NCBI GenBank assembly: GCA_031413715.1
Contig: JANOFO010000009.1
Location: 94,866-158,865, forward strand
DNA length: 64,000 bases
Reading direction: 5' to 3'
DNA from: Minisyncoccota bacterium
GTDB taxonomy: Bacteria > Patescibacteriota > Minisyncoccia > Phycocordibacterales > UBA9973
Shown piece by piece: positions 148 through 31,200 of this stretch. Every line of letters begins with the position of its first letter. The stretch's first letter is position 1. A program made the position numbers and the translations under genes. A model generated the notes under the pieces. It searched no databases. It saw only the letters and a program-made list of their open reading frames with translations, and was not told the origin of the DNA.

Positions 148-1845
148 ATGAATGACCTAACAGAAAAAAGAATATGTCAGAATTGTAAGGGTGACTTTAT
201 GATCGAACCAGATGATTTTGGGTTTTATGAGAAGTTAAACGTTACTCCGCCAACACATTGTCCAGATTGCAGACGACAGCGCCGACTATCTTGGCGGAAT
301 GATTATGTGTTTTATAATCGCGAATGTGATTTATGTAGGAGAAAAATAATTTCTATTTATTCTCCAGATAACCTTCAAGTTATTTATTGCAATAAATGCT
401 GGTGGAGCGATGCGTGGGATCCAAAAGAATATGCTCAAGATTTTGACTTTAATCGTCCATTCTTTGATCAATTTAGTGAATTCCGACAAAAGATACCTAC
501 TTTAGCGCTTGTTAATGATAACGGAAGTGGTAGTGAAAATTGCGAATATGTACAAAATGTTCAATACAGCCGTAATTGCTATATGGCAATGGTGGCGTGG
601 AAGATAGAAGATTGCATGTATTTCTCATATGGGGCTGATGCCAAAGGAGCTGTTGATTGTATGGGAATATTTGGCACAAGCGATGGGATTTATGAAGCAT
701 TATATAGTGAAAAATGCTTCGGTTCCCGCTATATCCAAAATTGCACATCCCTGATTAATTGTTCTCTTTGTTACGATTGTCACGGTTGTGATAGCTGTTT
801 TATGTCAGTTGGATTACGAAATAAAAAATATTATTTTAAAAATCAGGAATATTCAAAGGAAGAATATGAGAAAATTGTAAAAGAATATAAGCTCAACACT
901 TATTCTGGCACAGAAAAAGCCCTTCTAGAATTCAATGAATTTGCCCTGACTCAACCTCATAAATACAGTTTCTTGCTTAATTGCGCTACATCTACAGGCA
1001 ACAATCTTGTGAATAGTAAAAATGCATTCTCAGTATTCCATGTCCGTCGTGCTGAAGATTGTAAATATCTTGAAAACGGAGACACGGAAAAGGATAGTCA
1101 TGATCTATGCGTTGGGGGAGAGTTAGAACAATGTTATGAAGGCCTTACTCCTGATCACTCACGAAAAGCTCTCTTTACTAATTACACCTGGAAATCATCC
1201 GATGTGTTGTATACAGATTTTTGCATGTCTTGTGCTGATTGCTTTGGATGTGTTGGACTTAAGCATGCAAAATATTCTATTTTCAATAAAGAATACTCGA
1301 AGACAGAATACCAATCTCTCAAAGAGAATATTATTGAGCACATGAAAAAAACAGGTGAGTGGTGTGAATTTTTTCCAATGAAGTATTCGCCTTTTGCATA
1401 TAATGAGTCCATGGCTGAATTATCATTTCCTTTATTAGAAGAGGAAACCAAGAAAAAAGGTTTACGTTTTCAAGAAAATATCCAGCAAACTAGAGGGAAA
1501 ACAACATTAGTTGAAATTCCTGATGCAATTGAAGATGTATCTGACTTAATTACACAAGAGATACTTGGATGTGTGGAGTGTCATAGAAATTATAAAATAA
1601 TTGTTGATGAATTAAATTTCTATAAAAAATGGCGGATACCTGTGCCACACAAATGCTTTTTTTGTCGTCTCAAACGGCGTTTTGAGTTGCGAGGTCCCTC
1701 TACACTCTGGTACCGTTCATGTATGTGTAAGCAAGAAGGGCACGATCATACTGCAGATTGCGGAAATGAATTTGAGACTCCATATGCTCCTGGTAGACCT
1801 GAGATCATTTATTGTGAGTCTTGTTATCAAAAAGAGGTAATATAA
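148..1845 (+). CDS. Cysteine-rich multi-zinc-ribbon protein of unknown function (paralog 1 of a tandem pair).
   Basis: 565-aa ORF. The N-terminal ribbon is CQNCKGDF-IEPDDFGFYEK...CPDCRRQRR and the C-terminal ribbons are C-ECHRNYKII-EL-FY-K...C-FCR and CGNEFETPYAPGRPEIIYCESC. Internal units of the form C-x2-C-x2-C-FG-VGL-x-KY-x-NK-YSK-EY are repeated. It is about 45 percent identical to the downstream ORF by eye. Confidence 0.6.
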   Translation: MNDLTEKRICQNCKGDFMIEPDDFGFYEKLNVTPPTHCPDCRRQRRLSWRNDYVFYNRECDLCRRKIISIYSPDNLQVIYCNKCWWSDAWDPKEYAQDFDFNRPFFDQFSEFRQKIPTLALVNDNGSGSENCEYVQNVQYSRNCYMAMVAWKIEDCMYFSYGADAKGAVDCMGIFGTSDGIYEALYSEKCFGSRYIQNCTSLINCSLCYDCHGCDSCFMSVGLRNKKYYFKNQEYSKEEYEKIVKEYKLNTYSGTEKALLEFNEFALTQPHKYSFLLNCATSTGNNLVNSKNAFSVFHVRRAEDCKYLENGDTEKDSHDLCVGGELEQCYEGLTPDHSRKALFTNYTWKSSDVLYTDFCMSCADCFGCVGLKHAKYSIFNKEYSKTEYQSLKENIIEHMKKTGEWCEFFPMKYSPFAYNESMAELSFPLLEEETKKKGLRFQENIQQTRGKTTLVEIPDAIEDVSDLITQEILGCVECHRNYKIIVDELNFYKKWRIPVPHKCFFCRLKRRFELRGPSTLWYRSCMCKQEGHDHTADCGNEFETPYAPGRPEIIYCESCYQKEVI

Positions 1846-1849
1846 ATAT

Positions 1850-3577
1850 ATGGAAACCCGAAACTGCCAAAATTGTAAAAAAGATTTCAACATAGAACCA
1901 GATGATTTTGGGTTTTATGAGAAAATCAGCGTACCTGCGCCGACTTTTTGCCCAGATTGTCGAAGGCAAAGACGCTGGGCATGGCGCAACAATATGTCTC
2001 TCTATTCCCGAAAGTGCGAGCAATGTGATAAATCAGTTGTTTCTCTATATTCTCCAGAATCTGATTTTACTGTCTATTGCAATAAATGTTGGTGGAAAGA
2101 TACGTGGAGTCCAATTGATGATGGAGTAGACTATGATTTTTCTAGGCCATTCTTTTCGCAATTTAGGGATTTGCTACAAAAAGTACCTCAAATAGCTGTA
2201 GTCAACGATGATGGAATCGCAAGTATCAATTGTGAGTACACTCATGACTGGTGGTTTTCAAAAGATTGCTATATGTGCTTTGTAGGTTGGCGTGCAGAAA
2301 ATGTCATGTACAGCTTCTTTGTCCTTGCTGGTAAGAATATGATGGACTGCATGAATATTCGCTCCACAAACGAATGGATGTATGAGTGTATAATGTCGAG
2401 CCAATCCTATCAGCTTAAATATTCAGAATTCTCAAAATCATGCTTGAATTCACAATTCCTGTACAATTGCGTAGGTTGCTCCGATTGCTTCATGTGCTTT
2501 GGTCTTCATAATAAGAAATATAATTTCAAGAACGAGCAGTACTCTAAAGAGGAATATGAAAAAATACTTGAGAGTTATAGACTCGATACATTTTCAGGAG
2601 TAGAGAAAGCAAATAAAGAGTTTAATTCTTTGCTTACTAAATTCCATAGAAGATTTGCTCAGATATATCATAGTACAAATTGTACTGGTGATATTATTTC
2701 TTTTTCAAAAAATGTAAAGAATTCTTTTATCATTAAAAATGGTGAAAATATTAAATATTCTGATTTTGCAGGAGGTAGTGCTGGATCGAAAGATTCTTAC
2801 GACATAACTACTTCAGGAGAAATGTCAGAATGTTATGAAACGATAGTCGCGGATCATTCGCAGCTAAATCTGTTTGGAATCTTCTCAGTCAAAAGTCAGG
2901 ATATACGTTATTCTCAACATTGCCACAATTGTAAACATGTTTTTGGTTGTGTTGGGCTTCGTAACTCTAGTTACTGCATTTTAAATAAACAGTATACAAA
3001 AGAAGAATACGAAGCATTACTTCCTAAGGTAATCGAGCATATGAATACTATGCCGTATATCGACAAAATGGGTATAGTCTATAAGTACGGAGAATTTTAT
3101 CCTATTGAGCTGTCTGTGTTTGGATATAATGAATCCCACGCACCTGAGCTAGTGCCATTTTCAAAAGAAGAAGCACAGATTCGAGGATACAATTGGCAGG
3201 ACAATGTTCAAAGAACAACAGGAAAGGAAACCATAACACCCGAAAATATCCCTGAATCTATTCACGATATCTCTGATACAATCACTGATGAAGTACTTTC
3301 TTGTATAGAGTGTAAGAGGAATTACAAAATAATTCCAAATGAACTAACTTTCTATCGCAAGATGCTGATACCTATTCCACGAAGATGCTTCTATTGTCGT
3401 CATCAGGCTCGTATTAACAAAAGGAATCCTTTCAAACTCTGGCATAGAGCTTGTATGTGTGATATGAAAGGACATGAACACGAAGGGAAGTGTGCTATTG
3501 AATTTGAGACAACTTATTCACCCGAGAGACCCGAAGCCATATACTGCGAAAAGTGCTTTCAAATAGAATTTAATTAG
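1850..3577 (+). CDS. Cysteine-rich multi-zinc-ribbon protein of unknown function (paralog 2).
   Basis: 575-aa ORF starting 5 nt after paralog 1. It has the same N-terminal CxNCKKDF-IEPDDFGFYEK...CPDCRRQRR motif, the same C-terminal CIECKRNYKII...CFYCR and GKCAIEFETTYSPERPEAIYCEKC motifs, and the same internal Cys-rich repeat units. Confidence 0.6.
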   Translation: METRNCQNCKKDFNIEPDDFGFYEKISVPAPTFCPDCRRQRRWAWRNNMSLYSRKCEQCDKSVVSLYSPESDFTVYCNKCWWKDTWSPIDDGVDYDFSRPFFSQFRDLLQKVPQIAVVNDDGIASINCEYTHDWWFSKDCYMCFVGWRAENVMYSFFVLAGKNMMDCMNIRSTNEWMYECIMSSQSYQLKYSEFSKSCLNSQFLYNCVGCSDCFMCFGLHNKKYNFKNEQYSKEEYEKILESYRLDTFSGVEKANKEFNSLLTKFHRRFAQIYHSTNCTGDIISFSKNVKNSFIIKNGENIKYSDFAGGSAGSKDSYDITTSGEMSECYETIVADHSQLNLFGIFSVKSQDIRYSQHCHNCKHVFGCVGLRNSSYCILNKQYTKEEYEALLPKVIEHMNTMPYIDKMGIVYKYGEFYPIELSVFGYNESHAPELVPFSKEEAQIRGYNWQDNVQRTTGKETITPENIPESIHDISDTITDEVLSCIECKRNYKIIPNELTFYRKMLIPIPRRCFYCRHQARINKRNPFKLWHRACMCDMKGHEHEGKCAIEFETTYSPERPEAIYCEKCFQIEFN

Positions 3578-3605
3578 TCTATCTAATCGTGTATAATATC
3601 CCTGT

Positions 3606-4187
3606 ATGACTGAAACAATAGAATTTTTCGCAAACTATAAACATATATCTGTGATTATTCACGTCTTGTCTGTGGTTGCTGGCATGGGGGCGGCACTTAT
3701 TTCGGATGTGCTATTTAATATTTATATCAAGGACAGGAAAATCCAAGCGAATGAAGATCGGACACTCGCTACGCTTTCCAATATTATATGGATTAGTCTT
3801 TTCTTTATAATTCTCAGTGGACTCGCGCTTTTTCTTTCGGAACCTCTCAAGTACGCTTATTCAGTGAAATTTTTAGTGAAAATGACGATTGTTGCGGTGA
3901 TTATCGTAAATGGCTACGCTTTCTGGAGATTGATTCACCCTGCGCTACGCAAAATGAATTTCACCGATACGAACATGCATCATAAATACGTGAAGCTTCG
4001 CAAAGTATCATTTGCCATGGGAGCGATATCGCTTGCCTCATGGCTCTCTGCATTCATACTCGGCATGCTCGGGCATATTCCGCTCACATATCTTGAAGCG
4101 ATTGCCGGCTACATGGCTATATGTTTCGGCGGCATTCTTGTCAGTCAGATCATTGAATATCGAATGACACATGGAAGAGCGGATTAA
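3606..4187 (+). CDS. Hypothetical integral membrane protein (about 4-5 TM helices).
   Basis: 193-aa ORF dominated by hydrophobic helical segments. I recognise no family. Confidence 0.5.
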   Translation: MTETIEFFANYKHISVIIHVLSVVAGMGAALISDVLFNIYIKDRKIQANEDRTLATLSNIIWISLFFIILSGLALFLSEPLKYAYSVKFLVKMTIVAVIIVNGYAFWRLIHPALRKMNFTDTNMHHKYVKLRKVSFAMGAISLASWLSAFILGMLGHIPLTYLEAIAGYMAICFGGILVSQIIEYRMTHGRAD

Positions 4188-4236
4188 CTTATACTCAATT
4201 TATACGATCGTTAGAAATGAGTATAAAGTAGTGTAG

Positions 4237-4830
4237 CTACTTGTTAGTAAACAGTCCAGATAGATATTTTTTCTTTATTCCTATAATTATAATCGTGTTG
4301 GCTATAAGCAAATAAAGCGGAAAAGCGAAATTTAAAAAATAAAAATCAGTAATAATCAAAAAAGTAACAAGCGAACTAAGGTTGCCATAAAGATATGGCC
4401 CAATGCTCTCTGTCTCACTATGCTTCCAAGCTTTTAGAATGGTTGGAAGTCCTGCAAAAAGATCGGCAAGGATTGCAAATAGTACAGAAAGATTCGCATT
4501 CTTTGTTGTGACCCAGATAATAATCGCGCTGAGAGAAAGAGCGCCACATATAATATCAAACATTGTTACTTTCCAATATGAATGTTTATTGAAAAAAGAA
4601 GCGAGGACTACGAGCAGAGGTCCAAACCCCGCCATAAACGTACTTACTAAAAGGGGAGTAGAAACTCCAGATCTGTAAAGAACATATACTCCCACGAACG
4701 GAGCAATCGTCCAAAAGATCCATGAGACGCGATTTGGCTTTGTCTTCCCTAGGAAAGTATCCTTGATGTAGAAGAAAATTCCGAGAAGACTAATAACAAT
4801 CGTAAAATAGGCGAAATATTCAGGAAGCAT
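4237..4830 (-). CDS. Hypothetical integral membrane protein.
   Basis: 197-aa ORF with multiple hydrophobic helices. I recognise no family. Confidence 0.5.
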   Translation of the reverse strand: MLPEYFAYFTIVISLLGIFFYIKDTFLGKTKPNRVSWIFWTIAPFVGVYVLYRSGVSTPLLVSTFMAGFGPLLVVLASFFNKHSYWKVTMFDIICGALSLSAIIIWVTTKNANLSVLFAILADLFAGLPTILKAWKHSETESIGPYLYGNLSSLVTFLIITDFYFLNFAFPLYLLIANTIIIIGIKKKYLSGLFTNK

Positions 4831-4940
4831 AATGTGGGAATTATAATACTTTTTTAGATATGTGTAAATGTGTCTTTTGATGAATTTACTTTATACTGAT
4901 ATAATTAGTCATTACAAGGTAACGTTTCTCATAAATAGAT

Positions 4941-5939
4941 ATGAAAACAAAACTAGAGTACGTATGGCTTGATGGTTATACTCCAGAGGCAAGTTTGCGA
5001 AGCAAGACGAAAGTTGTCGACGGTAAAATTAAAGATTTAAAAGATGTACCCGAATGGTCTTTTGACGGAAGTTCGACAAAGCAGGCTGCCGGTCACTATT
5101 CAGATTGCCTGCTTCGTCCTGTGGCAATGATCCCAGATCCAGGCCGAGCTGATGCGATGCTTGTCATGTGCGAAGTGCTTAATCCCGACGGTACTCCACA
5201 CGAGACAAATGCCCGAGCTCTTGTAAAGGACGTAGCTGATTTGTGGTTCGGTTTTGAGCAGGAGTATGTGATTATGAAAAATGGAAGGCCGGTCGGCTTT
5301 CCAGAAGATGCAGAAAAGTTTCCTGCTCCGCAAGGGCCATACTACTGCGCTATCGGGACAGAAAATATAGCTGGGCGCGATATAGTAGAGAAACACCTTG
5401 ATCTCTGCCTCTCTGCAGGCCTAGGCGTCACAGGCATCAATGCTGAAGTTCTTCTTGGGCAGTGGGAATATCAACTTTTTACAAAAGGAGCATTACTTTC
5501 TGCCGATCTGCTGTGGCTTTCCCGGTATCTACTTATTCGGACAGCCGAGGCGCATAACGTATCGATTACATTTCATCCGAAACCTCTCACTGGGGATTGG
5601 AACGGTTCCGGCATGCACACAAATTTCTCGAACGAACGCATGCGCACATCTGGCGGCAAGGACTATTTCGAATCTATTTTCAAGGCATTTGAACGCAATC
5701 ATAAGAAGCATATAGATGTCTATGGCTCGCAGAACGACAAGCGTTTGACCGGCAGCCATGAGACGCAGAGCATCAATGCGTTCAGCGTCGGAATCAGCGA
5801 CAGAGGCGCGAGCATTCGCATTCCTCAGACGACGGTTGGCCATGATTATAAAGGATATCTCGAAGACCGCCGTCCCTCAGCCCATGCCGATCCCTATAAG
5901 ATTGTCAAAGTCATAAGCGAAACCCTGGCTGAAGCTTAA
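4941..5939 (+). CDS. glnII: Glutamine synthetase type II (eukaryote-like GS-II).
   Basis: It is nearly collinear with eukaryotic/GS-II sequences. The N-terminus has EYVWLDGY and EWSFDGSSTKQAAGHYSDCLLRPVAM-PDP. The middle has GPYYCAIG and GINAEVLLGQWEYQ. The catalytic region has NWNGSGMHTNFS. The C-terminus has RIPQTTVGHDYKGYLEDRRPSAHADPY. GC is visibly higher than in flanking genes. Confidence 0.9.
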   Translation: MKTKLEYVWLDGYTPEASLRSKTKVVDGKIKDLKDVPEWSFDGSSTKQAAGHYSDCLLRPVAMIPDPGRADAMLVMCEVLNPDGTPHETNARALVKDVADLWFGFEQEYVIMKNGRPVGFPEDAEKFPAPQGPYYCAIGTENIAGRDIVEKHLDLCLSAGLGVTGINAEVLLGQWEYQLFTKGALLSADLLWLSRYLLIRTAEAHNVSITFHPKPLTGDWNGSGMHTNFSNERMRTSGGKDYFESIFKAFERNHKKHIDVYGSQNDKRLTGSHETQSINAFSVGISDRGASIRIPQTTVGHDYKGYLEDRRPSAHADPYKIVKVISETLAEA

Positions 5940-6003
5940 ATAATAATTCTCCTTTAAATTTCATTCCATAAACAAGGTTTTTGTTGTATAATAAAGCTAA
6001 TCT

Positions 6004-8124
6004 ATGGACAACAACATTCCACAAAACCGCGATATAACCTACTTTGGTCGGACCAATTTTCGCAGCACGAACAATATCTTCGGCATAAAGCGTAAAGATA
6101 GGCGTCAGCACATGTACGTCCTTGGTAAATCTGGTACTGGTAAATCTGTCCTCCTCTCAAACCTCATTGTCCAAAATATCAATAATGGCGAAGGTGTCTG
6201 TGTTGTTGATCCGCACGGCGAACTCGTCGAAGAAATCCTTCACCTCATTCCCGATCATCGTGCTAAAGATGTAATCTATTTCAATCCGGCAGATATCGAT
6301 TTCAATGTCGGGTTCAATGTTATCGCCCTCGAAGATCCAAAGTACAAACACTTGGTTGCCTCGGGGCTGATGGGAATATTTACCAAGATCTGGGCTAATG
6401 CTTGGAGCTCTCGTATGGAATATATTCTCAATAACGCTATCTTAGCGCTTCTCGATACTCCCGGCACAACCCTTCTTGGTATCCCAAGACTTCTCGTCGA
6501 CAAAGATTATCGTCAGATGATCATCGGCAATTTAAAAGATCCAGTTGTGAAAGCCTTCTGGGTGCATGAATATGAACAATGGCGTGAACAGTTTCGTAAC
6601 GAAGCCATCGCTCCGATTCAGAACAAAGTCGGACAATTCCTCTCTACCTCTATCATCCGTAATGTCGTCGGGCAATCAAAGTCTACAATCGATATCTTCA
6701 AGATCATGAACGAAGGAAAGATATTCTTGGTCAACGTGTCCAAAGGTCGTGTTGGTGAAGACAACTCAGCACTTCTTGGAGGCATGATTATTACAAAGAT
6801 TCAGCTTGCTGCTATGGAGCGTGTCCGTATCCCCGAGGATGAACGCAAGGACTTCTACTTGTATGTGGATGAGTTCCAAAACTTCGCGACTGATTCATTT
6901 GCAAATATTCTTTCAGAAGCTCGAAAATATCGTCTTAATCTTATCATTGCTCACCAATACACTGCACAACTTTCCAATGAAAATGGCACGGCTGTCCGCG
7001 ATGCAGTTTTCGGCAACGTTGGTACGATGATCATCTTTCGTGTTGGCGCTGATGATGCTGAATTCATAGAGAAAGAATTTGAACCAGAATTTACGGCTCA
7101 AGATCTGGTGAATTTGCCGAACTACCACATATATTTAAAACTCATGATTGATGGAGTTACGAGCAGGCCATTCTCGGCGAGTACGCTTCCACCAATGAAA
7201 ATTGACCTGTCTGCTGGTGTGAAAGAGAAGATTATCGAAACATCTCGCAGATTGTATGCCCGACCGCGCGAAGAAGTAGAAATGGAGATTTCCAAGTGGA
7301 GTGGTATGCTCCAAGTTGGTGATGAAGCAGCAAAATTTAAAGCTGACTGTTCGAACTGTGGCAAAGTCACTATGGTGCCTTTCGAGCCAAAAGAAGGCCG
7401 ACCCGTATATTGCAAGGACTGTATGTTCAAGATCAAAAGCGGGGAACTCAAGCCTCAAACGGGATTTGTGGCTTCGCGTTCCGCTCGCCAAGATGAGAGG
7501 ACCTCAACCCAACCCCTTGCCCTCCTTGGTATCGAATTCCAAAGTACTGGTACTAAACCGCCTGAGATAAAGCCTCGAGTATCTACTCCATCAAACTTCT
7601 CAAAATCATCTCCAAATTCAAATACAAGAGCTCCTTTTATTCCAGGGCAACGAACTGATAATAAACCGCCCGAAAGAAAGCATTCTGGCCCATCACCTCT
7701 ACTCCGAGGTTTGCTTGAAAAGATAGGTATGGAAAATAATAAACCCGTGCCACCAAAGGTAGCGTCCCAAGTGACTGAAGTTAAAACGATTCCAGTACCT
7801 CCGCCAATGTCTCTTTCGAGTTTGAAGAAACCTACCCCGAATGAAGTGGGAAAATCTTCTTCTCAAGCTACACCCCCTCTACCAATAAAGGAAGCATCAG
7901 AAGAAAAAAAAGCAACCCTCAAGGATTTGCTCGCTCGCGCCACCGCTTCAAAGCCAGAAGAGAAAAAAGAAGAAACTAGGCCAAGCCACGAATTTACTAA
8001 TTCGCCTATACCAGTTCCTCCTATTCCACAAGCCAAACAGGAAGATACAAAAACAGATACATGGCAGAAACGTACTGCTGAGAAAGAAGTTCCAGAAGAA
8101 GTTTTAAGAAAAGTATTAGAGTAA
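6004..8124 (+). CDS. VirD4/TraD-like (T4CP, FtsK-HerA superfamily) P-loop ATPase with a C-terminal zinc ribbon and a long disordered P/S/K/E-rich tail. It has no N-terminal TM segment.
   Basis: The Walker A motif is VLGKSGTGKS, followed by VCVVDPHGE and IYFNPADIDF-VGFNVI, which look like T4CP motifs. The Walker B motif is FYLYVDEFQNF, followed by LIIAHQYTAQL. The C-terminus has CSNCGKVTMVPFEPKEGRPVYCKDC and then about 250 residues of low-complexity sequence. GC is higher than the window average. Confidence 0.6.
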   Translation: MDNNIPQNRDITYFGRTNFRSTNNIFGIKRKDRRQHMYVLGKSGTGKSVLLSNLIVQNINNGEGVCVVDPHGELVEEILHLIPDHRAKDVIYFNPADIDFNVGFNVIALEDPKYKHLVASGLMGIFTKIWANAWSSRMEYILNNAILALLDTPGTTLLGIPRLLVDKDYRQMIIGNLKDPVVKAFWVHEYEQWREQFRNEAIAPIQNKVGQFLSTSIIRNVVGQSKSTIDIFKIMNEGKIFLVNVSKGRVGEDNSALLGGMIITKIQLAAMERVRIPEDERKDFYLYVDEFQNFATDSFANILSEARKYRLNLIIAHQYTAQLSNENGTAVRDAVFGNVGTMIIFRVGADDAEFIEKEFEPEFTAQDLVNLPNYHIYLKLMIDGVTSRPFSASTLPPMKIDLSAGVKEKIIETSRRLYARPREEVEMEISKWSGMLQVGDEAAKFKADCSNCGKVTMVPFEPKEGRPVYCKDCMFKIKSGELKPQTGFVASRSARQDERTSTQPLALLGIEFQSTGTKPPEIKPRVSTPSNFSKSSPNSNTRAPFIPGQRTDNKPPERKHSGPSPLLRGLLEKIGMENNKPVPPKVASQVTEVKTIPVPPPMSLSSLKKPTPNEVGKSSSQATPPLPIKEASEEKKATLKDLLARATASKPEEKKEETRPSHEFTNSPIPVPPIPQAKQEDTKTDTWQKRTAEKEVPEEVLRKVLE

Positions 8125-8164: not shown

Positions 8165-9565
8165 ATGATGACGAATAGAATATTTTATTTTTGCGCCACT
8201 TTTATTGTAGTGTTTTTTGCGTTTGGTCGTCTAGCTCATGCAGGATTTGAAATCAGCGAAATTATGTACGATCTCGATGGTACTGATACCAATCGTGAAT
8301 GGGTTGAAGTGGAGAATACTGGAACTGAATCGGCTGATCTTTCGAAATGGTTCTTCTTTTCTGATAATTCCAAGCATGTCCTTGTCTCACAAGGAGAGTC
8401 TATGGTACCACCTGGCGGATTTGCGGTTGTTGCTCAGAATGTAGGCCGTTTTAGGAGTGATTGGCCAAATTTCTTAGGACTTCTATTTGATAGCAGTTGG
8501 ACTGGTTTCAATAATGAAGGGGAAACGATTGCACTCAAAGATCCTGATCTAAATCTTTTGAGCAATGTAGCCTTTACCGCGACTCAAGGCGCATCCGGTG
8601 ACGGTAATTCACTTCAGAAAGTTACCAACACTTGGTTTGCCGCAGTTCCTACACCAGGTGCGACCAATCAGTCAGGCTCTTTCGATGAAGGCGTAGATAA
8701 AACGTCAAATCCTACTTCTCCATCACCTGTCAAAAAGAAAGAAATTGAAGTACCGAAAATTACTACGAATATAATTACAAAAAGCACTGTTTTTTCCGGC
8801 ATACCATTTGAAGTTGATGCGACTACGTTTGGCTATAGCAAAGAGCCTATTAAGATGGGTCGCTTTGTATGGAATTTTGGTGATGGAACAATGAAGACTG
8901 AATATGAACATGCAAAATTTGAGCATGAATACCACTATCCAGGAGAGTATGTCATCATGCTTTCTTATTATCGTGCTTGGACTGGTCCAGTCCTAGAGGC
9001 GACTGACCGTGTCGCTATCACTGTTATTCCACCCCTGTTATCTATCAGTTCGGTAGGCAAGGCCAGTGATCCATATGTGGAGATTAGTAATAAATCTACT
9101 TTAGAAGTTGATCTCTCGAGATGGATAATCCAAGGATCAATACATCCTTTCGTAATACCTGAAGGCACTATTATTTTGCCAAATCAGAAGCTCCGTTTTG
9201 GAAGCCGAGCTACAAATTTTAGCATCTATGACATGCAGTCTATAATCTTGCTCAATACCAACAAGGAATCCTTAGCCACTTATCCAGTAGGTTATAAAGG
9301 GGCATCATCTTCCCCAAAAAGTGGGTCGACTGCAGATGTTGTTTCGAATTCTAGTTCACCGTCGGTCATCAATCTAAATGATCTAGGCGCAAGTGCAAAT
9401 GATGCAAAGAGTATAAAAAGTTTACCAGGCAATATCTTTGCTTGGATGGGATCGATTGGGATAATTATCATTGGACTCGTCAGCATCATTCTTATTCATC
9501 GAAAGGGTTCAAAAGAGGCTCCTAACAAAGAATTAGAAGTTGAAGACATGAAGATCATAGAGTAG
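8165..9565 (+). CDS. Secreted or cell-surface protein with a lamin-tail domain (LTD), a PKD-like domain, a second LTD-like domain, and a C-terminal TM anchor.
   Basis: An N-terminal signal peptide is followed by an LTD signature (FEISEIMYDLDGTDTNREWVEVENTG-DLS-W...GETIALKDPD). The PKD-like motif is FVWNFGDGT...EYHYPGEYVIM. A C-terminal hydrophobic helix (IGIIIIGLVSIILI) gives the membrane anchor. Confidence 0.7.
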   Translation: MMTNRIFYFCATFIVVFFAFGRLAHAGFEISEIMYDLDGTDTNREWVEVENTGTESADLSKWFFFSDNSKHVLVSQGESMVPPGGFAVVAQNVGRFRSDWPNFLGLLFDSSWTGFNNEGETIALKDPDLNLLSNVAFTATQGASGDGNSLQKVTNTWFAAVPTPGATNQSGSFDEGVDKTSNPTSPSPVKKKEIEVPKITTNIITKSTVFSGIPFEVDATTFGYSKEPIKMGRFVWNFGDGTMKTEYEHAKFEHEYHYPGEYVIMLSYYRAWTGPVLEATDRVAITVIPPLLSISSVGKASDPYVEISNKSTLEVDLSRWIIQGSIHPFVIPEGTIILPNQKLRFGSRATNFSIYDMQSIILLNTNKESLATYPVGYKGASSSPKSGSTADVVSNSSSPSVINLNDLGASANDAKSIKSLPGNIFAWMGSIGIIIIGLVSIILIHRKGSKEAPNKELEVEDMKIIE

Positions 9566-17579: not shown

Positions 17580-18008
17580 CTAACTTTTTTGAAGCCAATA
17601 GACTCCCGCAACAATTATAATTATACTCATAATTTTCTGTGAATTAATTTGCTCACCTAAAATCATCCAAGCAAATAATGTTGTTCCTACTGGCATTAAA
17701 CAGCTAATCATAACTACATACTTGGATATATCAAACCCAGAGTTTGAAGCTAATAATGAGCTGTATGCAATCATACCTACACCATTTATTATTCCAGCCA
17801 GTACAATAATAGCTACTCCTTTTGTAGTCGAGCCATTAGATAACTGAATATCATTCTTTAGATACATATATATTACTGCTGTTAAGGCTGTAACAACACA
17901 TACAAAGAAAGTAATGGTTGAGGTAGGTAATTTGCTTACTTTCGCAAGAGAAGGCCATAAAGACCAAACTATTACGCATATCAATGTTAAACCGAGTGGA
18001 TTTTGCAT
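17580..18008 (-). CDS. Small multi-TM membrane protein (EamA/SMR-like, 4 TM).
   Basis: 142-aa ORF with four hydrophobic helices. A hairpin plus T-tract lies downstream at about 17527..17575. Confidence 0.5.
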   Translation of the reverse strand: MQNPLGLTLICVIVWSLWPSLAKVSKLPTSTITFFVCVVTALTAVIYMYLKNDIQLSNGSTTKGVAIIVLAGIINGVGMIAYSSLLASNSGFDISKYVVMISCLMPVGTTLFAWMILGEQINSQKIMSIIIIVAGVYWLQKS

Positions 18009-18237
18009 ATCTTTAATTTTTTTGGTTCAAGAAATTGCATTCAATCTACATCTATTTTTATGTTTTGTCAAATCATTGTAGTAATTTCGCGTGTCTATTG
18101 ACTTATATATATTTTATGTTACCATAAAGGTAAATTTAAACTTTGTAATAATGGAGGTTGTTGGATGATCTAAGTTTCTTATTTTTTTTGAGATATTTAG
18201 ACCATCCAATTTAATCACCAATAGTAAACTTGAAAAA

Positions 18238-18510
18238 ATGAAGAAATTAACTCAATTTACAGAAGAAAATGCAATGTATATTGCAAAGTTATTAAACGAA
18301 GAATATGACAGATTCTATGTCTGGGAAGATAAAGTAATGATAGGTTTGAAGGAAAAAAATGGCAAAGAACAAAGTGTTTATATCTATCCAACTGGTCAGG
18401 TTTCTTTTCTTTATAATGACGGTGAACCAGGTGGTTCAGGTTATAAAGATATAAATACACTTCCTATTACTGATTATCTGCGCAAACAGGGTTTTGAATT
18501 TAAATACTAA
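18238..18510 (+). CDS. Hypothetical small protein.
   Basis: 90-aa ORF followed by a 10-bp stem terminator (CACCCTGCAA...TTGCAGGGTG plus a T-run) at about 18550..18586. Confidence 0.45.
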   Translation: MKKLTQFTEENAMYIAKLLNEEYDRFYVWEDKVMIGLKEKNGKEQSVYIYPTGQVSFLYNDGEPGGSGYKDINTLPITDYLRKQGFEFKY

Positions 18511-18817
18511 AGGATACCCGCTTCTACAAAGAATTAGAGATTATATCCCCACCCTGCAAGTAAAATTGCAGGGTGTCTTTTATTTTCTCATTATACATCA
18601 TTAGATGTTGACATTAGTTTTAATAAATATAATATAAAAAGTAATGAACGGGTACTTGGTCTGTATCTGCCTCCGTTTACGGAACATTTAAGGACTAGTA
18701 AGTGCTCATGCGGATTGGCATTTATTTAAGTTAATACATCGCAGCCAATAAGACACTTTAAGCCTGGGTTCTATAACCTGGGCTACTTTTTATTGTATTT
18801 TGAAAGCCCGTACTTTC

Positions 18818-19030
18818 TCATGATATTGAAACAAGCTTTGAAGGCGAGTGATGGCCATTTATTATGCGGATATTTTGGGTTTTGAAATGCATTCGCAATA
18901 TCTCAACAATACGATTGTTTGCTGCATTATGCTCGGCTTTCTCTCTTACCGATATAGCAAAGTACCCTGGTTTTATTTCCTCGATTGATTCTTGCTTTGC
19001 TCCCGGAATTGCTTTTACATGTATGTACAT
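18818..19030 (-). CDS. DUF167 / YggU-family protein.
   Basis: The match is IHVKAIPGAKQ-IEEI...NAANNRIVEILRMHF...IRIINGHHSPSKLVSI, which fits the DUF167 consensus (VKP-AK...A-NG-AN-L...I-I-G-S-K-V-I). It lies downstream of miaA. Confidence 0.6.
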   Translation of the reverse strand: MYIHVKAIPGAKQESIEEIKPGYFAISVREKAEHNAANNRIVEILRMHFKTQNIRIINGHHSPSKLVSIS

Positions 19031-19046
19031 ATACTAGGACATTATA

Positions 19047-19955
19047 CTATGCGAGGAATTTTTCTATCGTCTTTAAGATTTTCCTCCCCTCGTTTCCATT
19101 CGTTGGATCAATCCACATAATTTTTTTATCTCTTTTAAACCATGTCTTTTGTCGTTTGGCATAGTGCCAGATCTCGATATTTAATTTCTCGATCATTTCT
19201 TGTTTTGTAAGTTTGCCTTGTAGATATAGGGCACCATATCGATATTCAAGACCCAGATCATTCATCCGCTTCCATGACATACCTTGTTCATGTAACTTTT
19301 GTATTTCACGGAGCATGCCCTTCTTGACCCGAGCAAGAAGGCGAGCGTGGATCCTTTCTTTCAGTATCTGATCTGGAAAAACAAGGCCTATTTTTAAGGG
19401 ATACCACACAGAATGATCCTGTGTGGTAAGTTTTGGTACAGAGCCAAGGGCTTTTGCAATTTCAATCGCACGGACAAGTCGAACTTTATTATTCTTATCT
19501 ATAGTTTTGGCTCTTTTCGGGTCTAGTTTTTTCATATACTCAAATAACACGATCGTAGAAAATGAGTATAACTTTTTCCTTAATTTTAAATTGGGTGGAA
19601 CTTCAGGAAGAATTATTCCGTTTACTACAGAGTCAATATAAAATCCTGTACCACCACAAAGTATCGGGACTTTACCTCGAGCAATAATTTCTTTTATTTT
19701 TATATCAGCGAGTTTTTTGAAATCACTAACCGAAAATACTTTCTTGGGATTGGCTACATCGAGCAAATGGTGGGGGACACCCCCCATCTCCTTCTTTGTA
19801 ATTTTGCCTGTACCTAGGTCCATACCCTTATAAACTTGCCGTGAATCAGCGGAAATAATTTCCCCGCCTATTTTCTTTGCAATATCCACTGCGAAATCAC
19901 TCTTGCCGGTGGCAGTTTGACCGAGGATTACAATGATTTTAGGTTTGTTTTTCAT
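19047..19955 (-). CDS. miaA: tRNA dimethylallyltransferase.
   Basis: The P-loop is IVILGQTATGKS and the SADSRQVYKGMDLGTGK motif is present. The protein is 302 aa. Confidence 0.9.
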   Translation of the reverse strand: MKNKPKIIVILGQTATGKSDFAVDIAKKIGGEIISADSRQVYKGMDLGTGKITKKEMGGVPHHLLDVANPKKVFSVSDFKKLADIKIKEIIARGKVPILCGGTGFYIDSVVNGIILPEVPPNLKLRKKLYSFSTIVLFEYMKKLDPKRAKTIDKNNKVRLVRAIEIAKALGSVPKLTTQDHSVWYPLKIGLVFPDQILKERIHARLLARVKKGMLREIQKLHEQGMSWKRMNDLGLEYRYGALYLQGKLTKQEMIEKLNIEIWHYAKRQKTWFKRDKKIMWIDPTNGNEGRKILKTIEKFLA

Positions 19956-20004
19956 CCTACTGCATATACTCGCATATAAAAGGGTTTTTTGCTATAATTC
20001 ACTC

Positions 20005-20235
20005 ATGTCAATCAAAAGTTTTATAACTGAAAAGCTTATTCGAGCGAAAATGAAGCACTTGCCTAAAGTTCAACAGGATATGTTCATCAAGCTTATAAAT
20101 GAAAATCCAGAGCTCTTCAAGCAGATCGCCGATGATACAAAAGTACTTACAAAGGGTGGTATGAGCGAAATGGCTGCGACCATGCAGGTCATGCGCAAGC
20201 ATCAGGCTGAAATCCAGAAGGCAATGATGGGATAA
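20005..20235 (+). CDS. Hypothetical small helical protein. The start is chosen at MSIKSF because the longer frame overlaps the miaA start.
   Basis: The ORF is 100 aa from 19933. The internal Met at 20005 avoids overlap with the divergent miaA. Confidence 0.4.
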   Translation: MSIKSFITEKLIRAKMKHLPKVQQDMFIKLINENPELFKQIADDTKVLTKGGMSEMAATMQVMRKHQAEIQKAMMG

Positions 20236-20446
20236 CTAATCCATATTATTAAATTAAACACTCCAGACTACAAAAATACTGCGAAATTATACATTGACTA
20301 GCAGTTTTTTTGTGTTAGTATATTGGCAATAATGGATCTTTGAAAATACTGTTTTAGTCTTGTATTTATTGGGTTATCTTTGCCCCTCTTTTAAAGAAGT
20401 GGGGTTAAGATAACCCAATAAAATCAAAAACCTAAAACAATTAACC

Positions 20447-23400
20447 ATGGAAGTAAAAAACATCGAAGCATTCACAGTGGATCATATGACCCACATGTGC
20501 AATCTCATCCATGGTTCACAGAACTATGGATACCAAACACCCAAAGAAGGCAATGTTCAGGATCTTGTAAGAGAACTTTTGAATGATACTTTGCCGATTG
20601 AGCATGCCATTCATGCTCCATTACTAAAATACAATAATGTGAGAGTAGCTTTTGTTGAAAATTTAAAAAAAGCGCTCAAACCTTACTTGCTTGGTATGGG
20701 TATCAAATGGAGAAAGAGCCAAGATGAATGTATCGAAGCGATTCTTAAATCAATGGATCGAGGATATGTCAGACTTGTAAATGAATTACCAACAGGCGTT
20801 GGTAAATCATTAATCGAAGGTGCTCTTGTAAAAGCAGCGCTTAACACAATGAAACAGTTTGGCCTTGATTACGAAATTCACATTATCACTTCCCGAGTTG
20901 CAATTGCCGGGCAGTTAATCTATGAAGAACTGCCTGATGATGAAAAGGATGATGAACCTCTCGAAATGGGAAAACCAGGCGATGTGAGAATCTGGTGCCC
21001 AGAACTTCACGATGATCAGATCCGTATCCTTGCTGGAAAAAGCGGTAGTAGTAAAAAGGAACTCCAAAAGGATTCTGTCCTTACTGTTAGCACTTATCAA
21101 GGATTGCGTGTCGGTAGAATTGTTGAGCATTTCCGAAAACCAGTGTTTATGATTATCTGTGATGAATCTCACCATACAACTGAGAGAGTCACAATGCATC
21201 TTGAGCAGATGAAATCGTCTTTTGCTTTTGCCTTTAGTGCAACAGTGCTTGGGCCAAATAGGGATCCGTTTATATACTTTGAGCGTGTCGAAAGACCCGA
21301 AATTATCAAAGAAAAGAAAACCTACATGGACTACTTGTGCTATTACAAAAGTATGGGCGAATCTGTTTATGACAAGGAGCTAAAACCAATACGTTGGATT
21401 GATGGAAAAGTTAAGATTAACGTTTCAGACGTCAAAACTCGTCCAGGAATGGGAGTCTATGATATTTTCAACAATGAGTCTGTGGCGCAAGCCATCGCTC
21501 AAAATGCCGATCTCGCTGTGCAGATAATTGAAGAAGCTTTTTTGACAGAGCATGTAGGATTAGAGCTCTCTAATTCAATGCCTATTTGGAGACGAAGTGG
21601 TCTTGTAGCTGTTGAAAGAGTGAACTTCGCAATTGACTGCGTAGAACTTTGCAATAAAATTCTGCCAGAAAAGCTAAAGAAAAAGTACGGTGAAGATGCT
21701 TATTTCAGAGCGGGGTATGTAGATGGAAAAATGACAAAAGATGAGTATAAAAAGGCTATCAAAGACTTTAAGGCAGGACGGATAACACTTCTATTCTCTG
21801 TAAAAAAAATAGGGGAGGGTGTTAATCTACTCTGTGCAAATTTACTCATCTTACTCAAAGCTTTCGGACTTGGATCAATGTGGGAACTCAAGCAATGGCT
21901 TGGACGTCCTGCTAGGGTAGATCCTGATAACCCTCTAGGAGATATGGTTGTGCTTGACTCGGTCTATCAAAGTGACAAACACTTGCTTGCAAGCATCTTT
22001 GGTATTTTTGGTCAATCAACATCACTCTCTGGAGGATTAGTGGCTGGTTGGGGTAACTCTTATGAACTTGAAAAAAAGATCATCGGGCTACTTCGTACCT
22101 GTAAAACCATTACAGAGCTTTGGAATATGTTGTCAGTTCAAGAGCAAGACCTTTTTCCTTTTTTACGGGACAAGGTGATTGAAGATCAGTTGAAGTCCGA
22201 GCGAAGTGAAGAATCTCATCCTCACCTGTACAAAAGTGGACGGGTGTTTGATCTTAAAAGTGTCCATTTTGTAGAACGTGACGATATCCAATTTTCGATG
22301 TCATTGGGCAATCCTGAAGCAATGGCTAAATATGCACTTGAAACATTAATTGATCAGGGATTTAACACAGCCGAGAGGTTGAGAGCGGTGAGAGATCACT
22401 CACTTCTTTTATGGTCTCGCCGACGTTTAGGAGCATTCCGTGACGGTCTTACGATGGTCAATTTAGTGCTAGGGATGAATGAAAAGGCTTTAATAGTTCC
22501 TCACATGACATCATTTATCGAACTCATGAAGAAAATTGGTCTTCCAATAGGGAGGATACTTGTCAGAAGAGAAATTGAACCCGTTGTGGAAAATAGGGCA
22601 AAAACCACTACTACTAATGGGGTGTCTGGTCGCCAAAAAGCTGAACACCTTAATACCAAAAAAAAGGAAATACGATCAGGTGTATTTACCAAGTTGCTCA
22701 AAGTACAGGGAAAAGATGGTTCTGTTGAATCGCTCTATGAACTATGTCGGGATCTATTTGGCATAGAGCCAGTAATCACAGTTATTACAAAAGATTTCTA
22801 TACTAAAACTAATCTACATCGAGCCCAGGCGGTAATTATATTACCTGACGGGCATAAGTATTCTAGTACAGTAAGGGAGTCACATAATGAAGAAACTGCG
22901 AAGCATTCCTGTGCAGCAGAACTCGAACAATCGATACATGATCTTTTTAGGAAGAAAGAGATAAAATTATACAAGGGAAGTCCTTTGTTCATGACCTATC
23001 TTAAACTTCTAAGGATTATTATATGTGAGTATGGATTTGGAGAAATTGATTACACGCCTATTATAGAAGCGAATGGAGTGAAATCAATACAGGCAAGCGT
23101 GGCAAATAAGAAGGGAAGAATACCAGGAGGTATTGTATCCCATCGTGAGATTGAAATTGCAAAACAACACGCCGATATAACGCTGTGCTTCGAGTTATTA
23201 AAATTGTTCCCTGGTTTTTATCAGGATGAACCTTTCATGGAAACTCATCATAAGAATGATTTAGATATCTTGTGTCGAAAAATGAATCTAACTTTTAAAA
23301 AAGAGTATGTCAAAATTAGATCAAATGGTTATGATCTCCATAAGGCAACTATTACTTGTACGATCTATAAGAAAGTTGGTTTTGGCATTAATCAAATAGG

Positions 23401-28200: not shown

Positions 28201-31200
28201 ATGGGAATGAAAAAATACGATCATACAAAAATCGAAAAGAAGTGGCAAAAGGAATGGGACAAAGAAAAGCTTTACAAAGTTGAAGATAGTGTTACAGGCA
28301 AAGAGAATTTCTATCAGCTTGTTGAATTCACGTATCCATCTGGCAATCTCCACGTAGGGCACTGGTACGCTTTTGCAGTTCCAGATATTTTTGCTCGTTA
28401 TAAACGCATGCAAGGGTTCAACGTACTTTACCCGATGGGCTTTGACGCATTTGGATTACCTGCTGAAAATGCAGCTATTAAAGAGAACGCAGATCCGAAA
28501 GTTTGGACTTATGAAAAAATGAATGCGATGCGGATCCAGCTTAAATCAATGGGTGCGATATTTGATTGGGATCGTGAGATCGTGTCATGCGATCCACAAT
28601 ACTACAAATGGACGCAATGGATGTTCAATAAATTTTTAGAGCATGATTTAGTTTACCGTGATATTACAAAAGTAAACTGGTGTCCCAAAGACCAGACTAT
28701 TCTTGCCAACGAACAAGTTGTCGATGGGCATTGTGAACGCTGCGGTGCGGAAGTAGAGCAAAGGAATCAAGAGCAATGGATGCTCCGCATTACCAAATAT
28801 GCCGACCGGCTTATCGATGACCTCGATGCACTAAATTGGCCAGAAGAAATCAAAGCGGCTCAAAAAAACTGGATTGGCAGAAGCGAAGGAAGCGAAATTG
28901 AATTTCATATACGACAGAGCCCATCCCCGACCCTTCCCAAAGGGAAGGGAGAAATACCTGGTTATATGACTTCAAATGATGAAATTTATGAAACTGTTCA
29001 AGAGAGAGCAGTAGAAATGCGAAAAGCTCCGACTAAAGCAGAGGAAATTTTGTGGGATTCATTAAGAGGGAACAAAATTGGTTATCACATAAGGAGACAG
29101 CATGTAATCGATAGATTTGTTGTGGACTTTGCTTGCTTAAAAGAAAATCTTGTTATTGAGATAGATGGTGATATTCACGACTTACAGAAAGAAAAAGACG
29201 AGGAAAGAACAAATATTCTTAAAAACCTAGGGTTTAGGGTTATTCGGTTTAAAAATGACGAAGTAATAAAAAATTTAGATGGAGTAATAAATAAAATCTT
29301 AAATGAGTTAAAGAACCCTTCCCTTGGGGAAGGGCAGGGATGGGCTTCATCTGAAATAATAAAAGTATTTACGACGCGAGCGGATACTCTATTTGGTGTG
29401 ACATATATTGTCCTTGCTCCAGAACATGAGCTAGTAGAAAGTTTAAAATCTAAAGTCGAAAGTGAAGAAAATAGAAAACAAATTGAAAAATATATTTCAG
29501 ATACGAAGAAAAAATCCGAACTTGACCGCAAGCAGCAGAAAGAAAAAACTGGGGTAGAACTCAAAGGAGTAAAGGCGGTAAATCCTGCAAATGGTGAAGA
29601 AGTGCCGATCTGGGTGGCGGACTACGTGCTTGCAGGTTACGGAACAGGAGCGATCATGGCTGTACCGGCTCATGACGAGCGGGATTTTGAATTTGCTAAG
29701 AAATACAATTTGCCGATCAAGAGAGTTGTGGAGCAAAAATTCATAGCGACTGATAGTCCTATGCATTCTGAACTTGAAATTCCCGCTACATATAGAAATG
29801 CCATTTGTGCAATAATTCGTAATCCCAAAGATGATACATATCTCTGCAGCGTCTGGAAAGATATTCATTGCCACGGATTGATAACAGGCGGAGTGGAAGA
29901 GGATGAAGATATTGTTGAAGGAGCCTTGCGTGAGATATATGAAGAAACTGGATATAAAAATTTAAAATTTATAAGGAATCCTGATATAGCAATTCATACT
30001 TTTTTTTATCATCGTAAAAAAGAAGTAAATAGATGGGCCCGATTTCAATATCTCTTTTTTGATCTGATAGACGAAGTTCAGGACTCTATCGACGAGAATG
30101 AATTCGCAATACATGATGTTGTATGGAAATCTAAAGACGAACTCAATGATTTCTTTTCTGTTGTAGAAGGAGAGTTTTCTCTTACATTAATAGAAAATAA
30201 TGGAGACTATGTATATACAGGTGAAGGTATTCTCGGGAATTCTGGGAGATTTAATGGCATGGATTCAGAAGAAGCCCGCACAAAGATTACCGAAGCAGTC
30301 GGAGGGAAAATGGTAAAAACATATAGATTGCGCGATTGGGGGATTTCGCGCCAGCGGTATTGGGGTACGCCGATCCCTATCGTCTATGATCCCCAAGGGA
30401 AAGCCCATCCTGTGCCGGACGAGCATTTGCCGTGGATTTTACCTGATGATGTTGATCACAAGCCGTCAGGTGTGGCACCGCTTGCTAAAAGCAAGGAACT
30501 CTTTATGCGAACCGAGAAAATTTTTGGTGAAGGTTGGAAGCCAGAAGTGGAGACGATGGATACGTTTGTGGATTCTTCATGGTATTTCTACAGATATCTT
30601 GATAATAAAAATAGTAAAACATTTGCTGATAAAAAACACCGAGACGCATGGATGCCGATTGATCTTTATATGGGTGGTGCTGAGCATACTACTATGCATT
30701 TACTGTATTCACGTTTTTGGGTGAAAGCCATGCATGATCTAGAAATGGTGAAAGAAATAGAAAGCTATAAAGTGCGTCGCAATCGTGGGCTTATCTTGGG
30801 ACCTGACGGCAATAAAATGTCGAAATCCAAAGGCAATGTTGTTAATCCAGATGAGATTGTCGAGAGGTTAGGCGCTGACACTGTGCGTATGTATCTGGCT
30901 TTCATGGGGCCATACGGAGTTACGGTCAATTATCCATGGGATCCAAATGGAGTGGTGGGCGTACGACGGTTTCTTGAGCGGGTCTGGAAGTTGAAAGACA
31001 AGTTGAAAGAGAATAAAGAAGGCACTTCTTTCTTTATTGAGAAATCCACTCATCTGGCAATAAAAAATATAACTGAATATATGGAAAGTTATAAGTTTAA
31101 TACAGCAGTCTCGCAAATGATGATTCTTTTAAATTATTTAGAAAAACAAGATGTTACTATCGAGATTTATAAAACATTGTTGCAGCTTCTTTCGCCATTT

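Follow-up and report, generated by a model that had tools for sequence, protein, structure and literature searches.

Among type IV coupling proteins (T4CPs), TraD of the F plasmid binds TraM through its C-terminal tail, and DotL of Legionella, a membrane-anchored component of a secretion system, carries a C-terminal extension that recruits adaptors, including the zinc-binding protein DotN. A survey of 2,918 Patescibacteria genomes reported 5,713 orphan VirD4-like T4CP homologues (about two per genome), of which 148 were located near virB4, and its authors stated that it 'cannot be ruled out' that they were possibly 'exapted for other functions' (PMC12102498). Here we describe the surroundings of one such orphan homologue, which is encoded in a 64,000-nucleotide stretch of DNA (hereafter the window) from a Minisyncoccota bacterium (assembly GCA_031413715.1, contig JANOFO010000009.1, positions 94,866 to 158,865). 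Close to the gene for this ATPase lie two tandem genes for cysteine-rich (Cys-rich) proteins, here called CysA and CysB, which share a ribbon domain with it. In our reading this part of the window is a reduced version of a module on the chromosomes of Paceibacteria-type Patescibacteria, and we tentatively favor, at a probability of about 0.4, a coupled module in which the Cys-rich paralogs would be clients or adaptors of an ATPase ring.

The open reading frames (ORFs) that an earlier, sequence-only reading of this DNA had called were all found where it placed them, and the two types of protein are composed as follows:

148..1845, forward strand: CysA, 565 aa, Cys-rich Patescibacteria family, with the order U1-U2, M1, M2, X, U3-U4
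160..303, forward strand: CysA unit 1 (aa 5-52), zf_Tbcl-like predicted treble clef, CxxC-x24-CxxC followed by a basic CRRQRR
310..423, forward strand: CysA unit 2 (aa 55-92), exact CxxC-x17-CxxC ribbon
499..897, forward strand: CysA M1 (aa 118-250), predicted beta-solenoid of 12-residue period, closed by the Cys cluster C211-x2-C214-x2-C217 and a helix (NKxYSKEEY)
949..1353, forward strand: CysA M2 (aa 268-402), second copy of the predicted solenoid domain
1354..1554, forward strand: CysA X region (aa 403-469), acidic and strongly conserved (GEFFP...SPFxYNExxA...W..Q.T.GK)
1555..1842, forward strand: CysA units 3 and 4 (aa 470-565), duplicate of the N-terminal ribbon pair
1850..3577, forward strand: CysB, 575 aa, same architecture as CysA, after a gap of 4 bp
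6004-8124, forward strand: T4CP-like ATPase, whole gene, 706 aa
6004..7323, forward strand: ATPase core (aa 1-440), Walker A GKSGTGKS at aa 41-48, Walker B YVDEFQ
7336..7431, forward strand: ATPase C-terminal ribbon (aa 445-476), CSNC-x17-CKDC, PF23477/TIGR04272
7432..8082, forward strand: ATPase tether, disordered and basic (pI 9.7; 55% P/S/T/K/E)
8083..8121, forward strand: ATPase C-terminal peptide KEVPEEVLRKVLE-COOH, candidate docking motif

Judged by its sequence, the ATPase is a T4CP at the level of its domains. Its nucleotide-binding domain is homologous to that of TrwB, VirD4 and TraD, and the VirD4-like motifs pointed out earlier were borne out by scores above the Pfam cutoffs for PF10412 (TrwB_AAD_bind; 52.1 vs 20.5), PF02534 (T4SS-DNA_transf; 34.2 vs 20.1), PF12696 (TraG-D_C; 33.7 vs 22) and DUF87, as well as by a PDB match to TrwB (1e9r/1gl6; E = 3.7e-8) whose alignment takes in the regions of Walker A, Walker B and IIAHQ. 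The long C-terminal extension with its conserved terminal peptide is a further likeness to T4CPs. The protein differs from them in that it has no N-terminal transmembrane (TM) domain: no TM-like segment was found along its length (maximum Kyte-Doolittle value over 19 residues 1.23, none reaching 1.6, with Walker A at residue 41). Moreover, its context is one of chromosomal housekeeping genes, and we detected no type IV secretion system (T4SS; virB4) or relaxase genes in the 64 kb window or among the recurrent neighbours in 160 loci around homologs (80 GTDB loci centred on the Cys-rich genes, with 243 family members, and 80 metagenomic loci centred on the ATPase). It also differs in its C-terminal CxxC-x17-CxxC ribbon, in its duplication into long and short forms and in equivalog scores far below the NCBIfam T4CP cutoffs (TIGR03743, 50.4 vs 366; NF045973, 46.4 vs 250). 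PADLOC returned only generic HerA/mad8 P-loop matches for this protein, which also matches phrog_5156, a family of unknown function.

Across the sampled loci the ATPase occurs in three forms, namely a long form with ribbon and tail, a short form of ~490 aa without ribbon and a form of 740-914 aa with an extra N-terminal domain; a long and short pair fits the ~2 orphan T4CPs per genome of the survey (PMC12102498). The absence of a membrane anchor, noted in the sequence-only reading, holds for the polypeptide of the window, but relatives carry a separate or fused N-terminal partner domain. This domain, fam1 (449 aa), is encoded directly upstream of the ATPase in 41 of the 80 ATPase-centred loci, and its soluble domain corresponds to the N-terminal part that the long no-ribbon ATPases carry as a fusion (hhalign probability 100%, E = 3.5e-43). 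A hydrophobic N-terminal segment is present in 29 of the 41 separate fam1 copies and in none of the fused forms; membrane anchoring of the fused ATPases was rejected, as they have no TM-like segment, and homology between fam1 and the Cys-rich family was likewise rejected (hhalign probability below 1%). The gene order in most other Patescibacteria lineages is SecD-SecF, a Sigma70_r4/HARE-HTH protein (342 aa), fam1, ATPase, PGK and DHH, and the same operon (L089, L097, L098, L103-L160) also carries RNase H, MurJ and DivIC. The 449-aa protein, which is unannotated and in some lineages fused to the ATPase, matches the architecture of the phage family phrog_5156.

Behind the ribbon, the tail predicted earlier to be disordered was confirmed as a low-complexity stretch of 230 aa with an isoelectric point (pI) of 9.7, 55% of which consists of P, S, T, K and E, and orthologs have tethers of between 180 and 390 aa. 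In the clade in which the ATPase is linked to arrays of Cys-rich genes, the end of the long-ATPase tail is near-invariant, (K/R)E[VI]PE[DE][VI]LRK[IV]LE-COOH (EVPEDVLRKILE), while other ATPase lineages have short tails with different endings. ATPases from outside the array clade (L102-L160) end in '...(I/L)xPG(E/D)x(I/V)xF' or '...(V/I)(N/D)LxELKxxLxxxL', and these alternative recurrent C-terminal motifs suggest lineage-specific docking peptides. A C-terminal extension together with candidate accessory proteins would be a theme in common with DotL, with the difference that the candidate partners here are large solenoid proteins present as many paralogs.

CysA and CysB share 46% identity from end to end and belong to a large family, which comprises over 5,290 clusters at the 90% identity level and 4,824 representatives at 50% identity, in which all named matches are Patescibacteria 'hypothetical proteins' and most of the top 150 matches are full-length, at roughly 520-600 aa. 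No relative of the family was found on viral contigs, PADLOC gave no matches for the Cys-rich proteins, and we found no account of either the family or the module in the searchable literature. The true start of CysA is the ATG at 148, as backed by the family alignments (38 members, then extended to 113 and 216), whereas the public entry (P0001, 548 aa) begins at M18 and is missing the first invariant CxxC (window 148-198). Neither a signal peptide nor a TM segment was found in these proteins, and the median Cys content of the family is 35. Little or no variation is seen across the family in four Cys4 units (C10/13/38/41, C60/63/81/84, C475/478/503/506 and C525/538/556/559); in unit 4 the first knuckle is split by a variable insertion (C525...C538-x17-C556-x2-C559), leaving C-x17-CxxC in place. 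The repetition of these units is internal to the protein, as unit 1 matches unit 3 (hhalign probability 99.4%), unit 2 matches unit 4 (98%) and the N-terminal ribbon pair matches the C-terminal pair (99.7%), so that the recurrence of the N-terminal ribbon near the C-terminus, as claimed before, is well founded. The further claim that the paralogs are built from zinc-ribbon units stands for the four Cys4 units, but these make up only ~30% of each paralog, and the middle appears to consist of two homologous beta-solenoid domains, M1 and M2, which are an internal duplication (hhalign probability 99.9%, E = 2e-37).

The predicted architecture, a ribbon pair, two beta-solenoids of 12-residue period and another ribbon pair, comes from an AlphaFold model built with 113 sequences (mean predicted local distance difference test, pLDDT, 86.7; predicted TM-score, pTM, 0.85), in which M1 and M2 form short strands every 12 residues. 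The solenoid signal is independent of this model: in the 216-sequence alignment, the lag-12 autocorrelation of hydrophobicity reached r = 0.46 in M1 (z = 4.9) and r = 0.41 in M2 (z = 4.6) and was absent from the termini. Both predicted solenoids close with a conserved Cys cluster and a helix and are followed by the acidic conserved region 403-469, for which we found no known relative. A first model from 38 sequences had given a pLDDT of ~55 in the middle and an empty Foldseek result against the PDB; the deeper model gave no significant PDB or BFVD match either, with weak beta-helix hits (best E = 0.16, TM-score <= 0.19) and local zinc-ribbon hits. The local BFVD matches for units 1 and 3 were to phage 'putative zinc-ribbon domain' proteins (probability 1.0, root-mean-square deviation 0.6-0.9, ~40 residues). 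Sequence and profile searches of the PDB yielded only a compositional LIM match (E ~0.01), and the core of the proteins has no relative in Pfam (for all 38 alignment members), NCBIfam, PADLOC or the PDB. The first solenoid (CysA aa 129-231, nt 532-840) weakly matches phrog_15341, of unknown function (E = 0.002). With beta-solenoid proteins such as left-handed beta-helix enzymes and pentapeptide-repeat proteins the model shares a regular repeat and short stacked strands, and all its weak Foldseek matches are beta-helix proteins; it differs from left-handed beta-helix and hexapeptide proteins in its period of 12, not 18 or 20, and in having no hexapeptide or pentapeptide Pfam match. A solenoid with 12-residue coils is found in an insect antifreeze protein.

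The ribbon is what the two protein types have in common. In profile-profile comparisons the ATPase ribbon matched the terminal unit 4 of the paralogs (hhalign probability 94.6%, E = 7e-8), the resemblance reported in the sequence-only reading, and even more closely unit 2 (96.5%, E = 8e-10), its closest relative, which had been overlooked; controls against the middle region stayed below 1%. The CxxC-x17-CxxC spacing is exact in the ATPase ribbon and in unit 2 of both paralogs. Because such matches support the homology of the units, the proposed ribbon pattern is real, yet it is not the unusual one it was taken for: the ATPase ribbon scores above the curated cutoffs of PF23477 (51.2 vs 27) and TIGR04272 (53.3 vs 36) and is a known domain instead of a new motif. 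The paralog ribbons appear to be divergent members of curated families, all below cutoff, with PF23477 scoring 19.3 bits on CysA unit 4 and 13.1 bits on CysB unit 2 (cutoff 27; sub-threshold matches of units 2/4 in 11 of 38 members) and PF13451 (zf_Tbcl) scoring 17.6 bits on unit 1 (cutoff 24; sub-threshold matches in 15 of 38). The CxxC-x17-CxxC domain binds zinc in small proteins of Methanosarcina mazei (PMC12704099). Those archaeal proteins, whose spacing is identical in unit 2, are stand-alone and small; here the same domain is appended to an ATPase and occurs twice within a 565-aa protein. When hidden Markov models (HMMs) of the ribbons were run over 23,881 ORFs, nothing was matched apart from the two families (Cys-rich and ATPase) and six small ORFs, with cross-hits in both directions, in a sample of 2.27 Mb of Patescibacteria DNA that consists of neighbourhoods of these genes and not of whole genomes. 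Within this sample the motif is therefore not generic, and no other protein of the window carries such a ribbon.

In the 80 GTDB loci, the Cys-rich genes occur as 1 to 11 tandem copies per locus. Neighbouring copies of an array share only ~40% identity (range 28-63%). For 178 of 191 members the closest sequence belongs to a different genome, and orthogroups keep their order wherever this could be made out. The array paralogs are thus ancient, individually conserved and non-redundant, and do not stem from recent expansions.

The ATPase is a recurrent neighbour family of these genes. A homolog lies within 10 kb in 30 of the 80 Cys-rich-centred loci, compared with a chance linkage that we estimate at ~4% for a ~1 Mb genome with 2 ATPase genes, and in 22 loci it is the immediate neighbour (<500 bp); in 20 of these 22 pairs the gap does not exceed 77 bp, and most pairs are on the same strand. 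There are six arrangements of the junction, and all three ATPase forms take part: one locus (L046) has seven Cys-rich genes bracketed by two ATPase genes, while in another (L041) three ATPase and three Cys-rich genes alternate (A-C-A-C-A-C). Peribacterales, Gracilibacteria, Falkowbacteria and Staskawiczbacteria show the linkage with a different ATPase form, the gap between Cys-rich gene and ATPase being 19 bp in Peribacterales and 0 bp in Staskawiczbacteria. In the ATPase-centred set the terminal motif goes together with Cys-rich genes (6 of 7 loci vs 2 of 54 without; Fisher p = 3e-6), as does tail length (median 228 aa vs 90 aa in the same comparison). Arrays are likewise associated with ATPase duplication (p = 0.002), and fam1 is present in 1 of 10 array loci compared with 40 of the 70 others (p = 0.006). 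One large clade has the order S13-S11-S4-RpoA-L17-L13-S9, GrpE, [array], PaaX-like regulator, DnaK, long ATPase, [array], short ATPase, DnaJ, so that here the Hsp70 operon contains the module; among the neighbour families of the Cys-rich-centred loci, DnaK ranks third by frequency (16 of 80).

The closest relatives of the window, whose ATPases are 94-96% identical, carry a short ATPase, 3-5 Cys-rich genes, a long ATPase, a gene for a lamin-tail-domain (LTD) protein and a methyltransferase (MT) gene, in that order, with a Cys-rich gene 20-23 bp upstream of the long ATPase. In its canonical form the locus has 3-7 Cys-rich genes between the short and the long ATPase. Besides the genes given above, the same part of the window contains the following:

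3606..4187, forward strand: TM1, small membrane protein, 193 aa, also found within the array of a close relative (L006)
4237..4830, reverse strand: TM2, small multi-pass membrane protein, 197 aa, no Pfam match (family 26)
4941..5939, forward strand: GlnII-type glutamine synthetase (GS-II)
8165..9565, forward strand: LTD + PKD protein with hydrophobic N- and C-terminal segments

The module of the window is eroded in comparison. It is left with two paralogs, no short ATPase is present within the 64 kb, a HicAB pair lies upstream, and GS-II stands beside the ATPase, in the place of the Cys-rich gene 20-23 bp upstream in the relatives. This HicB-like (UPF0150)/HicA toxin-antitoxin pair is located directly upstream of CysA on the source contig (L081 359-841), at the position where close relatives have further Cys-rich genes and the short ATPase. 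Homologs of TM2 are found beside DnaJ and the short ATPase, or within arrays, in several genomes (L024, L030, L074 and L010), and the LTD + PKD gene is kept immediately 3' of the long ATPase in the clade of the window (L006, L007, L010, L046 and L062).

In the reading that we favor, the components would be a tandem series of genes on one strand, which encode ancient paralogs of a predicted multi-zinc protein of the cytoplasm, each with a ribbon pair (types T1 and T2) at both ends of two rod-like solenoids, and a non-conjugative ATPase of the T4CP (TrwB/VirD4) superfamily that bears the same T2 ribbon, a 200-400-aa tether and a C-terminal peptide. The ATPase would form a ring motor, as is typical of its superfamily, and the Cys-rich paralogs would act as its clients or specificity adaptors, recruited by way of the tether peptide and/or the shared ribbon, the latter through ribbon-ribbon contact or a common ligand. 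In the clade of the window the paralogs would have replaced the ancestral N-terminal partner domain, fam1. Such a module might be cytoplasmic, co-expressed with the Hsp70 system and engaged in handling a polymer, be it nucleic acid or unfolded polypeptide; we infer the physical interaction, the assembly of the ring and the substrate. A more ambitious version, which we regard as unlikely, sees an unrecognised Patescibacteria machine, that is, an exapted T4CP ring of long and short subunits with an ordered set of up to ~11 distinct zinc-capped solenoid proteins, co-regulated with Hsp70, in which ribbons of the same kind on either end of these proteins and on the motor would permit docking or head-to-tail assembly.

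Several observations weigh against such coupling. No ATPase is present at 50 of the 80 Cys-rich-centred loci, 14 of which have at least 5 kb on both flanks. In one clade a lone Cys-rich orthogroup lies between ScpA-ScpB/VanY and MraY-like GT4, FtsW and MurG, as a single copy and with no ATPase near (L013, L019, L022, L023, L069, L071, L011 and L005); given this position, at least one paralog may have a division- or cell-wall-linked role. The reciprocal comparison gives a narrower picture, with a Cys-rich gene in only 10 of the 80 ATPase-centred loci, all of them having an ATPase at least 65% identical to that of the window and none falling into the 50-63% class, where the loci instead carry fam2-fam1-ATPase. 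The co-localisation that the sequence-only reading put forward as a check is thus seen from the Cys-rich side and fails in the reverse direction in most lineages, and its idea of a single functional module finds support inside one clade. The fusion of ribbon and ATPase is older and wider than the linkage, since the ribbon is found on 63 of 89 ATPase ORFs, array-free lineages included, and so predates it. In the window itself, the Cys-rich genes and the ATPase are 2.4 kb apart, separated by an opposite-strand gene, the inserted GS-II and a promoter-like pair. The co-occurrence tests ignore phylogeny, with much of the signal given by one large clade, and the fold searches offered no functional hint for the Cys-rich proteins.

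These points could be taken to mean that there is no functional coupling at all, and that one or a few ancestral rearrangements were inherited within housekeeping blocks while the ribbon, as a promiscuous zinc module, was gained independently. Linkage is indeed found mainly where the ATPase shares 65% identity or more with that of the window, many arrays have no ATPase, both families reside among housekeeping genes (ribosomal protein, dcw and Sec genes), PF23477 occurs in unrelated archaeal small proteins, and the genes of the window are already apart. We nevertheless find this explanation, the main rival, less likely than coupling, because six different junction arrangements with operon-like gaps, linkage to another ATPase form in Peribacterales, Gracilibacteria, Falkowbacteria and Staskawiczbacteria, the exclusiveness of the ribbon to both families (besides the six small ORFs) in 2.27 Mb and the tracking of arrays with the ATPase tail motif, ATPase duplication and fam1 loss would all be unexpected under it. 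The recurrent order GrpE-[array]-PaaX-like regulator-DnaK-ATPase-[array]-ATPase-DnaJ, the rank of DnaK among the neighbour families and the ~35 Cys per protein, including four Cys4 sites, would also suit a proteostasis module, with Cys-rich zinc/redox holdases or co-chaperones, comparable to Hsp33 or the zinc centre of DnaJ, and with ATPases as unfoldase or disaggregase partners of DnaK/DnaJ/GrpE. This seems improbable to us, given that the Hsp70 context is essentially that of one clade and is absent from the window and from the Peribacterales and Gracilibacteria loci, that no homology to Hsp33 or DnaJ was detected and that ATPases of the T4CP family are not known to work as chaperones. T4CPs serve as receptors for substrates, many Paceibacteria have T4SS genes, and multi-paralog arrays beside a coupling protein look like effector loci; the Cys-rich proteins could be T4SS effectors recognised by the ATPase for delivery to host cells, with the C-terminal unit 4 perhaps serving as translocation signal. 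We consider this very improbable. The proteins are highly conserved and form ancient orthogroups, unlike fast-evolving effectors; four predicted zinc sites together with the solenoids would make unfolding difficult; a TM segment is missing from the ATPase, as are T4SS genes from the 64 kb window; and only 148 of the 5,713 Patescibacteria T4CPs lie near virB4, t4cp being dispensable for epibiotic growth in S. epibionticum (PMC12102498).

A different origin had been proposed for the ATPase in the sequence-only reading, in which the whole of 4900..8100, GS-II and ATPase together, was a horizontally acquired GC-rich islet. The region is GC-richer, as was noted (0.44-0.48 over 4.9-8.1 kb vs 0.39 window-wide), and its tetranucleotide deviation is the largest of the window (4801-8000, z = 2.25), although 17601-20800 is about equal (z = 2.23). 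Gene by gene, the composition is that of GS-II, whose GC of 0.483 (z = 2.6) is the highest of 37 genes, while the ATPase (0.441, z = 1.3) ranks third, near UDG and MurA. For the ATPase, conserved synteny refutes acquisition: in related genomes, orthologs at 78-96% identity are found at this position, with LTD and MT next to them downstream, and the gene has been inherited vertically. The islet as a whole is thus almost certainly a wrong description, and a transfer is plausible only for GS-II, which has the top GC, is missing from all 80 related loci and, below four close relatives, has its nearest homologs in other phyla. Its relatives comprise four at 70-84% identity, followed by homologs at 60-66% in Bacteroidota, Pirellulales, cyanobacteria and Rhodothermales; those at 60-66%, from many phyla, are named glutamine synthetase. 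Against NF041605 it scores 412.6 bits over the full model length (equivalog cutoff 500), and both the N- and C-terminal Gln-synt Pfam domains are above cutoff. GS-II sits where close relatives carry a third Cys-rich gene, and it is plausible that it is a recent, horizontal insertion outside the module. The promoter-like divergent pair at 4840-4905 is weak, and the counts of promoters and terminators are not above the shuffled expectation.

The survey of orphan T4CPs names neither partner, ribbon, tail motif nor genomic context, and no links to Cys-rich proteins, fam1, fam2 or Hsp70 (PMC12102498). The present module would provide a first testable clue to the role of T4CP-like ATPases outside a secretion-system context, with an unannotated Cys-rich family, an ancestral N-terminal partner domain, a docking-type peptide and a link to the Hsp70 operon as candidate partners and features. 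Much of bacterial diversity is accounted for by Patescibacteria, and the role of their VirD4-like ATPases is apparently unrelated to secretion (PMC12102498). Some genomes of ~1 Mb devote up to ~20 kb to Cys-rich paralogs, which implies an important function, and the predicted combination of duplicated ribbon pairs with two solenoids of 12-residue period, for which no PDB relative was detectable, is structurally unusual. If true, an exapted T4CP machine would represent a new class of ATP-driven cytoplasmic handling of nucleic acids or polypeptides in minimal genomes.

Downstream of the LTD/PKD gene, the window continues with the MT, UDG and MurA genes. Further along, a leucyl-tRNA synthetase of 1,095 aa (28201-31488, forward strand) contains two inserted domains besides its editing domain, a DUF559/REase-like endonuclease at aa 266-370 (113 bits) and a NUDIX domain at aa 531-648 (49 bits).

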